This document shows, piece by piece, positions 498-32,167 of a DNA stretch of 64,000 nucleotides. This stretch comes from Eledone cirrhosa. Lineage: Eukaryota. Below the pieces are notes generated by a model. It had not been told where the DNA came from. It saw only the letters and a program-made list of their open reading frames with translations, and did not search any database. Each line of letters begins with the position of its first letter. Position 1 is the stretch's first letter. The position numbers and the translations under genes were made by a program. The stretch is taken from assembly GCA_964016885.1 (NCBI GenBank), contig OZ024753.1:23126001-23190000 (forward strand), given 5' to 3'.

Positions 498-541
498 ATG
501 CCCTTGAGAAGCCCAACTGGGCGAAACGTACGTAGGTGATA
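498..541 (+). ncRNA. Minimal type I hammerhead ribozyme, U3-A8 core variant, in PLE 3' region
   Basis: ccc-TTGAGAA-gccc aact gggc-GAAA-cgtacg-TA-gg; palindromic stem III, weak stem I, AATAAA just downstream. Confidence 0.6.
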
Positions 542-594
542 TTTTAAATAAACATGTTTTAACGGTCTATTCTCCGATTTTTCACTTTCCCACG

Positions 595-985
595 TATATA
601 TATATATATATATATATATATATATATATATATATATAAATATATAAATATATATATATATATATAAATATATATATATATATATATAAATATATATATA
701 TATATATATAAATATATATATATATATATATATAAATATATATATATATATAAATATATATATATATATATATAAATATATATATATATATATATAAATA
801 TATATATATATATATATATATATATATATATATATATATATATATATATATATATATATATATATATATATATATATATATATATATATATATATATATA
901 TATATATAAATATATATATATAAATATATATATATAAATATATATATATATATATATATATATATATATAAATATAAATATATAA
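595..985. repeat. (TA)n microsatellite
   Basis: Seen directly, with TAAA interruptions. Confidence 0.95.
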
Positions 986-989
986 TAAT

Positions 990-2030
990 TATAATGAAAT
1001 GACAGGAGGCTGGATTTGTGTAAATCCTTGAAAGGTTTATTATACTATGATCATTTCAATGACCGGGTTCCGTATGAATCCGGTGATATCATCAGGTATT
1101 CGAAATATAATACGTGAATGTAATAGATAAAATCCATGGGGTTTAAAATCGAGGACCCGAGGGCGACCGCTATTCTGCTCCTTCAACCTCAGCCGGTCGC
1201 CCTGGAGTGACGAGTCTAAAGTTTATAGTATGCTACTACTGGTCAAATAAACGAAAACAGAAAGGGATGGGAGCATAAGTTAACGTCGATCTCATGACAC
1301 AAGGTAAAAGAAAGAAAGAAAGGAAGGAGAGAGAAGAAGGGGGAAGAAAGAAGAAGAGAAGCCAGGGTTAATGTCAGCTAAAAGAAGAAAGGCAACTACT
1401 ACCGGTCAGATATAGGCAAGCAAGAGGGGAAGGAAGATAAGTCTGCGGGAGGAAGACAGGAAGAGGGGAGAAGAGAAGGAAGAGAAGAGAGAAGTATAAA
1501 GTAACGGTTGATGGCTACAAGAAGGAAGATAGAAAGAAAGAGGAAGAAAGGTCGATATTAATGTCAGACCACAGTCAAGCCAGGAGTGGCGCGAGAAAAT
1601 GTTCACAGGGACCCGCATCTTAGCAGAGGTGAATATATTGGGAGTCAGTGTGTTACAGTGTTTAGACTTCTAGGATGAAGTTAAAAAAATTAATAATCAA
1701 TATTCAATATTAAAGAGGTTAGAAAATTTAAAGTTCAACAGTTTAACATTTTATTATATAATAGTTCCGATTTGTTCTGTAATTTAAGGGTACTATGTGG
1801 CGGTTAAAACACCGGCCGCGCCCCGGGCCCCATGGCGAATTAAGCTACGCCGAGTATTTTCATTTACTGAAAGAAGGGGAAATTTATTTTTCCAAGCACT
1901 CCAGGTGAGCTCGTTCACCACATAGTACCCTTAAATTACAGAACAAATCGGAACTATTATATAATAAAATGTTAAACTGTTGAACTTTAAATTTTCTAAC
2001 CTCTTTAATATTGAATATTGATTATTAATT
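990..2030 (-). mobile_element. ORF-less PLE-type fragment with HHR and inverted 5' segment
   Basis: HHR at 1042-1099; 1686-1800 is the reverse complement of 1918-2030; abuts the broken 3' end of a CR1-like LINE. Confidence 0.6.
1042..1099 (-). ncRNA. Type I hammerhead ribozyme
   Basis: Minus strand: atac-CTGATGA-tatcaccgg...ccggtcatt-GAAA-tgatca-TA-gtat, then aataaa. Confidence 0.8.
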
Positions 2031-29634: not shown

Positions 29635-31742
29635 CTATCCGTTAGGGTGTAATGTGGGGCTGTAATACAGGAAAGTTTTGTACAATTTATGTTTACAAGC
29701 CGAAATTGCCTCAGACTTTTTGTTTAAGATATGGTCTTTGGCGTAGAGTATTTCCAGGGCTTCAGCGGCGCAGAGGTCACATGGTTTTTTATTTCCGTTA
29801 TACGATCTAGCCTTAGCTAGGATCTCCCAGTGTAACTTATATTGGGTGTGGTTGTCTTTTAGACTCCAGATATAAGCTGAAAGTGGTGTCATATTCCTTC
29901 TTAAAGGGTTAAGAAAAGAATGGGTATGCATGTAAAGACGCTGCTTGAATCTATTGGCGGTTAACCCTATGTATGCCCTATGGGACGTGGGTGTTACAAT
30001 CTTACATTTGTAGACGATGTTACTAGAGAGGCATTTCCCGGATAGGGGACAGTCAGCCCAATTCCTACAACTACAGTTAGTACAAGCTACATGGTTGCAC
30101 GTGTTCCTACGGCTAGGTAATTTAGCTAAATTTGAAGCTGTGATGTTATGTGCAAGGTTAAGAGTCGTAGAGTAAGAAATTTTAATGGTATTTCTATTAA
30201 ACATTTTAATATATTTATGTGCTGGGGGGAAATGCTTCGTAATAAGGGAGAGAAAGATATTAGCTAATGGTGTGGCCACCTCCATATTATATGGTGGGTT
30301 ATAACATATAATGCGTCGGGGTCTATTTTTCCTAGGTCTATTCTCATACTCTGTATATGCTACCTTATCGACAAATCCACTCTGACCAAGAGCTTCATTG
30401 TAATATGTGGAATGGTCGGTGAAAATATGCTCATTTGTAGATAGACGGGAAAGCCTCAAAGAAACGTTTCTTGCCAGGTGCTTGGTTATGCTGGCTGGAT
30501 GGTTAGAATGTTTACTTATGTAATTAAGCGTATCATTCGGCTTTCTATACGGGTAGTCCAAGCCTTTCGACAAATTGAGGGTAACGTAGAGGTAATTAAC
30601 GACCGAGAGGTTGGCCTCAACCTGTATGGAGAGGTGGAAGCCTTTAAAGAAGACTGTGAGTTCTTTTCTGAACCTGTCGCGAGAACGTGGGCCGCACTAT
30701 GTCATGGTCAAAAGACCGTCATCACGGTACAAACCACCGCCCACGTTGGGGCGGTGGTTTGTACCGTGATGACGGTCTTTTGATAGAGAAAAGAAAGAAA
30801 AGGTCGATAAGATCAGTAACCTCCTCAGAATCGCTGGCGCCCATACTCACGTAGAATGGGGTACTATTAGATTTTTTAATCCAAATAGAGTCGTCGAAAT
30901 TAATCAGCGACTTACGAGCATTGAGGATGACATTAACTTCGAAATCCTTAACCACTGTGAGTGTTTTAGCGAAATTGATAGCTCTAAGAAGAAGTGGTAA
31001 AGTGATGGAAGAGTAGTAATTATTGATGTCGAATTGGATAAAATGGCAATGTTCCTTGTTGCATATGCCGTTGAACCAATCAATCACCGCGAAAGAATTG
31101 TTCCACTGTGTAAGAGGGGCCAAACTTCTAATTTCAGGTATAATTCTATCTAAAATCCTTTTACTAAGTCTACCTAAATCGGACTACGTAGGGTTAATAA
31201 GCCGAATAGAGGGGTTGTTCGGGAAATTGGATTTTTGATCCTTCAGGGTAAAGTGGCGAGAAATAGGGTCCAGAGGTTCAGTCCGGTCCAGGATGTTGAG
31301 ATCAGAGATGATTTTAAACCCAGCATCGTTGATGTCATTAATGACGCTCCGATTAGTTTTACGGTAATCCTTAGTTACAGCATTATGTAGCAGTTGATGG
31401 TAAATACTGCGCTCCACTTGATATAGATTGCCAGTTTTGTCGGAGTGGACGTGCATGTCATTAGAATCCTTAATAGACGAATTCTATTCTTCAGATCCGT
31501 ATGAGTTCCAATACATCATTTTCGAAGGGTAGCAATGCTGGGTTACTCGGAGGGTTATTGTAGGTTTTAAACCCAAATTTATCCTGTTTGTTGACCGCTT
31601 TTCCCTGATTATTGAAATAAAAGGCACGCCAACGCAACCTTTTCATGAACGCGTCTGTTTTCTGTATCAGGAGTTGTAGGTATGATTTCCTGCTTGATAC
31701 GGGTATGTTCTTTGTAGAAATATTCAGATGTTGTTTCTGCAT
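29635..31742 (-). pseudogene. Neptune-type PLE polyprotein, multiply disrupted
   Basis: STKNIP...RLRWRAF, SDKTGNLY, RLINPT, QFDINNYYSSI, MGASD, GLYRDDG, YRKPND, CSCRNWADCPLSGKC, IVY...YIG, CDLCAAE. Confidence 0.88.
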
Positions 31743-31852
31743 GATTAATATAAGTCAATAGAGTGCGCAACCGAGGGAGCCAGATAGTAATAATAATAAA
31801 TTTGAAGACTAAAATCCAAAGAGGGCTCGATAAGGATAAATATATATCAAAT

Positions 31853-32061
31853 GCCAGCAATGAAATCATATCCGCTCTCTTGCTCTGGAACCCTGACGCC
31901 AGCCTGACTAGGAGTAGGAAGCTGTCATTCCCTGACGTTATCTCTAGGGATACGGGAATCAGTAGACAGGACCTGGGGGCGGCGATGGGGGACAGGGAAT
32001 TCTGGGGCATGAGAGTGAGATCCATCATCTCGACAGTAGTAGACGAATGATGATGATGATG
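31853..32061 (+). mobile_element. Heavily 5'-truncated RTE-like LINE 3' end with (GAT)n tail and 11 bp TSD
   Basis: LLLWNP...DVISRDTG...AMGDREFW*; TSD atatatcaaat at 31842-31852 and 32062-32072; empty site at ~28290. Confidence 0.8.
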
Positions 32062-32116
32062 ATATATCAAATATATAAGAATCGTAGAGCAAATATTTAT
32101 TAAAATAACAGATTAA

Positions 32117-32167
32117 AGTTTAAGCAAAGAATCGCTGCTTTCACCCTTAACGGGATCTTCTGAAACT
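32117..32167 (-). ncRNA. Hammerhead ribozyme, U4A variant (second pLTR)
   Basis: Identical to 28344-28394. Confidence 0.6.

Follow-up and report, generated by a model that had tools for sequence, protein, structure and literature searches.

The closest described relatives of the sequences reported here are the Penelope-like elements (PLEs) and the retrozymes without long terminal repeats (non-LTR retrozymes), both of which carry hammerhead ribozymes. In PLEs, hammerheads have been reported from the pseudo-long terminal repeats (pLTRs), together with a dimer-type stem III, the U3-A8 core variant and pairs on opposite strands (PMC4209133), and in the Hydra clade canonical hammerheads and insertion into (TA)n have been published for almost all families (Craig et al., 2021, PMC8557442). 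A hallmark of PLEs is head-to-head inversion, in which one of the ends may carry a "tail" (PMC8557442; PMC3846280), and the purified Poseidon PLE protein of Anolis was found in vitro to cut AT-rich DNA, to extend both strands and to use two internal RNA start sites that bound the tail, with ribozyme cleavage not needed (Frangieh et al., 2024, PMC11167929). Large numbers are on record, with 126,247 in axolotl and, in a coral, more than 6,000 belonging to 16 families (PMC7229834). Published support for the mobilization of retrozymes by PLEs consists of co-occurrence and pLTR homology, and the enzyme that mobilizes animal retrozymes, as well as the use of circular RNA, has been stated to be an open question (PMC7229834; PMC7761336; 10.64898/2026.07.22.740005). 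Here we analyzed a 64,000-nucleotide stretch of the Eledone cirrhosa genome (GCA_964016885.1, contig OZ024753.1, positions 23,126,001 to 23,190,000 of the forward strand; hereafter the window), the first 32 kb of which is densely occupied by hammerhead motifs, PLEs and repeats without an open reading frame (ORF), lying among tracts of (TA)n.

We consider it probable that the hammerhead-rich part of the window is a pile-up of Hydra-type PLEs and ORF-less retrozymes, which were inserted into pre-existing (TA)n by PLE endonuclease (EN)/reverse transcriptase (RT) proteins. The element classes are known, and what apparently has not been reported is the integration footprint on retrozymes: no report of retrozyme arrays with (TA)n targeting, paired short and long ends and inversion was found in a literature search that left most subscription papers outside, and the supplements of Craig et al. 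and of the 2026 preprint may bear on the point. Young ORF-less arrays whose integration footprint is that of PLEs and whose start points are mapped, together with the stop-free PLE ORFs of the same genome, provide a defined enzyme candidate, RNA substrates and a target, by which the long-proposed and unproven spread of retrozymes becomes testable.

Type I hammerheads were scored with a relaxed descriptor (CNGANGA or UUGANAA as the core, i.e., C3-G8 or U3-A8, then GAAA and UH, with stems I-III) that tolerates stem II mismatches and a stem III of up to 80 nt, at a score of at least 20. An earlier strict descriptor, which did not capture U3-A8 cores, mismatches in stem II or a long stem III, had given eight rows, about five of them with a correct fold. 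With the relaxed descriptor, 18 type I hammerheads were observed in the first 32.2 kb (positions 1042 to 32167) and none in 32.3-64 kb, and chance motifs were rejected, as 100 local block-wise Markov simulations of the non-TA part gave on average 0.02 matches and at most one. Two additional motifs below the thresholds were recognized by eye, one at 498-540 (+), where stem I is weak (11.6 bits and E 7.1 with Rfam Hammerhead_1), and one at 20329-20375 (-) with a stem I interrupted by (TA)n, bringing the window to 20 motifs in 13 families. These counts are in line with a first-pass annotation made from the sequence alone, which had described about 20 hammerheads of about 12 families and no intact one beyond 32.2 kb, and the seven stem III palindromes listed there were all recovered. 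A perfect palindrome is present in 13/18 motifs, although the descriptor score itself favors palindromes. Other statements of that annotation held for part of the motifs: AATAAA, said to accompany stem I', lies 3' of the cleavage site in only 9/18, being found at the ribozyme in all five PLE families (A, C, F, I and L) and, among the remaining families, only in B. Similarly, TA-bounded islands of 130-1740 bp contain 14 of the 20 motifs, with six in bigger segments or at the window edge. The single (TA)n field that had been proposed proved to be 23 TA fields, which make up 16% of the first 32.2 kb and are interspersed with two LINEs (long interspersed nuclear elements) and four PLE ORF remnants; (TA)6+ occurs within 300 nt on the 3' side of 16/18 motifs. 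A comparison with Rfam Hammerhead_1, which had been suggested as a check, brought no motif to threshold. The whole-window Rfam scan contained no hammerhead at E<=10 and only repeat-driven miRNA matches, and three small scans gave 11.6-17.6 bits against gathering scores of 34-52 for models that describe canonical forms.

The type I order of core, GAAA, UH and three stems is found throughout, with the exceptions of A4 in family L and the weak stem I of family A. In their dimer-suited palindromic stem III, long stem II, weak stem I, U3-A8 covariant core and opposite-strand pairs 100-700 bp apart, these motifs resemble the hammerheads of PMC4209133, from which they differ in the stable stem III of families E, G, L and M and in the A at core position 4 of family L. 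Mutated or half hammerhead copies are also present at 15765, 17623, 19813, about 25460 and 27215. In addition, the 5' half of a hammerhead-like motif (core and short stem II, with no following GAAA) lies at 34115-34135 (+), and a TA run follows after about 70 bp.

Families D (591 nt), E (631 nt), G (about 535 nt) and H (310 nt) are, by the sequence criteria of tandem units and lack of an ORF, non-LTR retrozymes. They form head-to-tail arrays on many chromosomes, with one type I hammerhead per unit, no LTR and no coding capacity (longest stop-free stretch 59-86 aa). The largest arrays seen contain 12.4 units (E) and about 32 units (H), and the arrays are young, with identities of 98-100% and intact ribozyme cores in nearly all units. 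Like the non-LTR retrozymes described previously (PMC7229834; 10.64898/2026.07.22.740005), they consist of AT-rich tandem units that lack an ORF and contain a single type I hammerhead, range from monomer to multimer and co-occur with PLEs. The units are longer, at 310-631 nt (one is about 2.9 kb), than the typical 150-400 nt, the range in Li et al. (2026, 10.64898/2026.07.22.740005) being 51-972 nt, and the ribozymes are minimal or long-stemmed and PLE-like, including U3-A8, unlike those of known non-LTR retrozymes. The text consulted of these two sources (PMC7229834; 10.64898/2026.07.22.740005) makes no mention of (TA)n as a target, of two fixed 3' ends or of inverted arms.

The anatomy of 30 insertions of families D, E, G and H was analyzed, of which L133 and L134 represent one duplicated insertion (two of the 17 5' breaks). 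(TA)n directly abuts 41/43 3' ends and 14/17 variable 5' breaks; since it is also found at the 5' breaks, the TA repeat is the target, and its interpretation as an element-made tail was rejected. Families D, G and H have two fixed 3' ends each, mapped to unit positions 165/591, 454/536 and about 167/202 and lying 165, 82 and 26-35 nt apart, respectively, those of D being 80 and 245 nt downstream of the cut site. Contigs of an independent run likewise have loose ends in TA at both D positions (8504 and 8669), by which an assembly artefact was rejected. Every inverted insertion with both ends visible combines one short and one long 3' end (13/13; three of D, six of G and four of H), with the G locus L128, which the clustering rule treated as a 5' break, standing outside the 13. 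When the missing ends of three half-seen arrays were predicted and then fetched, all three fitted (two of the three were from fixed or random samples), so that the pairing holds for 16/16 resolved inversions; two further H arrays did not have both ends within the stretches fetched. This combination of a short and a long end is the "tail" signature of PLEs. Furthermore, array-private substitutions are fixed across units and both arms, including 31/31 units at two sites in L209 (H), 5/5 at five sites in L206 and 13/13 at one site in L208 (E), and D arrays behave alike.

From this pattern of ends, arms and shared substitutions, trans-mobilization of the retrozymes by PLE-type insertion appears quite likely, and a circular template is suggested with roughly half that confidence. 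In the mechanism that we propose, the GIY-YIG domain would nick both strands of (TA)n, and reverse transcription would begin within the RNA at two fixed sites, 30-270 nt downstream of the ribozyme cut site. Each strand would be primed from one of the sites, so that of the two head-to-head arms one would end short and the other long. As the cDNA crosses the cut site, the template should be an uncleaved or re-ligated RNA, and for multi-unit arrays a circular monomer would be the simplest one. PLE proteins would integrate their own RNA and retrozyme RNA alike, with the Hydra type as the most plausible enzyme because of the (TA)n target, and the two (TA)n flanks left by each insertion would serve as new targets, by which families would become nested. 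In its fullest form, which we put forward tentatively, a PLE RT (probably of the Hydra clade) would copy retrozymes by rolling round a self-cleaved, re-ligated circular RNA, the two start points would prime both nicked (TA)n strands to give palindromic arrays of up to 10 kb in one event, and the genome would thus have been filled to about 60 motifs per Mb. The AT-rich cutting, extension of both strands and two internal RT starts defining the tail would be shared with the Poseidon PLE of Anolis (PMC11167929). The tails differ in being 26-35 (H), 82 (G) and 165 nt (D) long, in belonging to non-coding elements and in having short TA microhomology at the junctions.

Several observations weigh against this proposal. 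The search queries spanned one or both ends, which introduces a bias in the 13 inverted loci, and only 2 of the 16 inversions came from unbiased samples. The TA-like microhomology at the junctions amounts to 1-6 nt, unlike the non-homologous priming seen in vitro. By blastn, no sequence link was detected between families D, E, G, H, J and K (and B) and the ends of seven PLE families, save neighboring insertions and simple repeats, and thus the comparison does not identify the partner enzyme. In core-constrained folds, stem I fails to form in the monomer for 8/18 motifs; families E, G, L and M, with a stable stem III, are predicted to be able to fold as monomers. Finally, some variants are shared by subsets of units only (in L208, a repeating pattern that concerns three sites, with 2-3 of 12-13 units sharing the variant; in L209, 16G in 3/31; and in two D arrays), which indicates either later local duplication or a heterogeneous linear template.

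A linear template is the core of the alternative that fares best, in which PLE insertion is the same and the template alone differs, being the uncleaved tandem transcript of a homogenized source array, with ribozyme and circles irrelevant to mobility. The subset variants are what it would lead one to expect, and insertion by the Poseidon PLE in vitro was not impaired by hammerhead mutants, unprocessed RNA being the main substrate (PMC11167929); moreover, 8/9 Xenopus retrozyme dimers failed to cleave in vitro (10.64898/2026.07.22.740005). Yet a 23-unit arm would then require a 7-kb RNA that runs across 22 uncut ribozymes, the arrays are nearly uniform inside yet set apart by their fixed private sites, and the cores have stayed intact as described above. 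We therefore regard a linear template as possible but rather unlikely.

Unequal crossing-over likely acts on the arrays after insertion. A further step, proposed in 10.64898/2026.07.22.740005, would be to explain them entirely as ordinary satellites, each grown by unequal crossing-over from one pLTR-like unit per locus, with (TA)n expanding alongside later. The repeating higher-order variants in L208 and the commonness of (TA)n fields (0.56 per kb) agree with this explanation, which is nevertheless improbable, because it does not account for the fixed 3' ends, the TA at variable 5' breaks, the short/long pairing in all 16 inversions and the near-identical arrays on many chromosomes.

The genome-wide context of the hammerhead motifs was assessed with random 5-kb loci from the 2,996-Mb genome (80 positions drawn, of which 78 existed; 390 kb in total), which spanned C1-C26, with C9-C26 represented by the proximal part. 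In these, 24 motifs were found in 16/78 loci, corresponding to 0.062 per kb (bootstrap 0.033-0.095), with about one false match per simulated set (0-3). Extrapolation gives a genome total of about 180,000 motifs (100,000-285,000), an estimate that depends on the descriptor used, and a density of about 60 motifs per Mb, as compared to the approximately 4 per Mb implied by the published count for axolotl. All 16 hammerhead-bearing loci contain (TA)6+ and none of the 20 TA-less loci has a hammerhead (Fisher p=0.008). (TA)n was found at a distance of up to 300 nt on the 3' side of 20 of the 23 scorable motifs and on the 5' side of 9, against null values of 17% over all loci and 29% inside hammerhead loci, in counts where motifs of one array are not independent. 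The enrichment of hammerheads next to (TA)n that the first-pass annotation had named as a genome-wide test was thus observed, both for the 3' side and by locus. Its suggestion of a community of PLEs and ORF-less ribozyme passengers sharing (TA)n is supported as well, as Hydra-type PLEs (with stop-free 713-aa frames elsewhere in the genome) and ORF-less ribozyme repeats are both present.

At 0.56 motifs per kb, hammerheads are about nine times as dense in the first 32 kb of the window as in the genome-wide sample. The density of TA fields is alike (23 in 32.2 kb, vs 0.56 per kb in random loci), and a motif lies within 300 nt of 16/23 TA fields in the window vs 23/219 in random loci; the cluster runs on for 10 kb upstream (7 motifs, locus L011), followed by no motif in the next 10 kb. 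Such figures are what a special host-maintained locus, e.g., a silencing trap or functional ribozyme cluster, would have to rest on, but the same families are dispersed genome-wide, 3-4 motifs are present in 2/78 random 5-kb loci, truncation or mutation affects many copies, and nested targeting suffices, so that we consider such a locus very improbable. The nest in the window is an enriched example of a genome-wide pattern and not a special locus, and CR1/L2-type LINEs share this pattern; the LINE RT fragment at 2032-3736 is one that we tentatively take, from its motifs, to be of this type. The least probable explanation is that the ORF-less repeats move as DNA, in the manner of TA-targeting miniature inverted-repeat transposable elements or Helentrons with an incidental hammerhead, since, although their inverted ends resemble terminal inverted repeats and both TA-targeting DNA elements and Helentron-borne satellites are known, the inversion points and 5' breaks differ between copies, the arms are unequal, and (TA)n directly abuts the unit with no fixed flanking module.

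Candidate source proteins are present among the PLEs themselves. In family L, a broken ORF (29635-31183) is flanked by direct repeats with one hammerhead in each, and its relatives elsewhere in the genome include many stop-free 713-aa frames; the 85,343 hits to the protein are first-look candidates and not a copy number. Two same-strand hammerheads about 3.2 kb apart with the ORF in between were found in L148, L150 and L152. The 713-aa ORF of L148 comprises RT and a C-terminal EN, with a CxCX5C linker, CxxC and CxH around E/N and no CCHH, and in this copy, the only one read, RWR replaces RWK and NKT replaces DKT. The linker and CxxC/CxH, again with no CCHH, were also read in family C (5506-6174) and family A, and the same EN type occurs upstream of families A, C, I and F (loci in Table 1). 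A full ORF was seen for family L, and A, C, F and I are known from EN fragments. By these protein motifs, rather than by phylogenetic placement, families A, C, F, I and L match Hydra-type PLEs; protein searches returned homologues bearing no names, and hence no clade label. A Naiad PLE was rejected, as Naiad has an N-terminal EN and lacks a canonical hammerhead, and the EN is C-terminal in all PLE ORFs seen here. The likeness to the Hydra clade (PMC8557442) includes the short single ORF, the EN features above, pLTR hammerheads, (TA)n insertion (TA lies 30-170 nt 3' of the ribozyme in the window copies) and 5'-truncated inverted copies with a tail at one end. It differs from the small number of families in PMC8557442 by several families with very many copies and by the RWR and NKT variants. 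As a separate observation, family L, of the intact Hydra-type families examined the most abundant, carries A rather than U at core position 4, both in the two window copies and in each of the five relatives (L148-L152), and a 76-bp palindrome (30708-30783) is situated at the break of its ORF.

A second PLE at 20925-24812, with RVT_1 and GIY-YIG matches, belongs to another clade. Both of its pLTRs carry a hammerhead-like motif (21220-21260 and 24520-24560, -) with stem II, GAAA, TATA and UA, and a non-canonical core after a pyrimidine run and AG, which was left out of the count. The motif is kept in the three relatives compared and hence may represent either a variant core or a ribozyme that depends on splicing, such as the one reportedly described for Drosophila Penelope.

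Less certain as retrozymes are families J, K and B, which have one or two units per locus in eight loci each, with no ORF link found. In L207:1-3796, the family B unit measures about 2.9 kb, or 2.4 kb when an internal 506-bp duplication is discounted, and is partially tandem and accompanied by AATAAA; with no ORF >99 aa and no PLE protein match inside, it is possibly a large non-autonomous PLE derivative. The features of the window are compiled in Table 1.

Table 1. Ribozyme-bearing elements and co-resident retroelements in the window (HH, hammerhead)
Element	Position	Strand	Description	Relation to PLE ORFs
Family A	1..594	+	Hydra-type PLE 3' end; end of GIY-YIG-like domain 1-255; U3-A8 HH 498-540, then AATAAA and (TA)n	42% to L148 ORF; CxCX5C linker upstream in L011
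Family B	996..2031	-	5'-truncated copy; HH 1042-1099; short inverted arm	
LINE RT fragment	2032..3736	-	Co-tenant without HH	
Family C	4019..7051	-	5'-truncated Hydra-type PLE; EN fragment 5506-6174; HH 4045-4110 (-); inverted 3'-end copy with HH 6840-6905 (+)	39% identity, E 8e-50 to L148 ORF
Family D	8141..9263	both arms	591-nt ORF-less tandem retrozyme, U3-A8 core, inverted arms; HH 8216-8303 (-), 8933-9020 (+); 3' ends at unit positions 591 and 165	
Family E	9285..9961	-	631-nt ORF-less retrozyme, 1.07 units in window; HH 9547-9628	
Family F	11006..11348	-	Hydra-type PLE 3' end; HH 11176-11230	ORF link in 1/10 loci (L163)
APE+RT LINE	11660..15516	-	Near full-length, (TA)n on both sides, without HH	
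Family K	15765..16074	+	Truncated copy, reduced to the part 3' of the ribozyme core	
Family G	16161..18115	-	About 535-nt ORF-less tandem retrozyme, 64-nt stem III; HH 16420-16547, 16957-17084	
Family G, diverged inverted arm	17257-18115		Cleavage triplet mutated at 17623-17750 (+)	
Family H	18123..18484	+	310-nt ORF-less retrozyme, inverted fragment; HH 18319-18361	
Family I	18633..19501	both	Hydra-type PLE 3' untranslated region with inverted end; HH 18689-18759 (-), 19402-19472 (+)	ORF link in 5/8 loci
Family M	19703..19859	+	Hairpin with 3' half of HH only; whole motif in L068	
Family H2	20241..20375	-	Short copy; HH 20329-20375, stem I cut by (TA)n	
PLE of other clade	20925..24812	-	C-terminal EN, GxKF/DKG/CCHH; RT 22135-24519, GIY-YIG 21660-22034; direct pLTRs 20925-21508, 24255-24810	
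Family I	24900..25190	+	Fragment; HH 25067-25137	
Family J	25174..26123	+	About 530-nt tandem; HH 25988-26070 and core-mutated copy near 25460	
Family K	26176..27041	both	About 460-520-nt tandem, inverted arms; HH 26407-26449 (-), 26711-26753 (+)	
Family M	27067..27260	+	Second hairpin with half HH	
Family L	28233..32637	-	Near full-length Hydra-type PLE; ORF pieces 29635-30696, 30722-31183; direct pLTRs, each with CAGAAGA-core HH (28344-28394, 32117-32167)	

Some minor observations concern individual repeats. The arms of family G at 16420-16547 and 17623-17750 differ by a compensatory change in stem I, and the 64-nt stem III of this family is unusually long. The family M hairpin (about 190 bp) has matches in 16/96 sampled 5-kb loci (including L021, L059, L075 and L095); its inversion point lies repeatedly just 5' of the 3' strand of stem II, and its arms combine one short and one long end, a break position which suggests stalling of reverse transcription in the folded ribozyme. 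The 591-nt unit of family D occurs in sequencing runs under three organism codes from three studies, with no RNA run listed among them, and the four runs examined all cover part or most of it. One run contains it as a single 621-nt contig (the unit plus 30), which fits a circle or a tandem and was not used as evidence.

The remaining features of the window contain no scored ribozyme. The near full-length LINE at 11660-15516 had no match in 96 sampled loci. Short TA-flanked repeats at 7563-7686 and 27980-28200 recur in 4 and about 6 random loci, respectively. In the second half, remnants of non-LTR retrotransposons with Pfam RT and zf-RVT matches are located at 40080-45183 (-), and a 13-kb degenerate short-unit satellite of about 50% GC (50600-64000), whose long open frames are repeat artefacts, occupies much of the ribozyme-free half.

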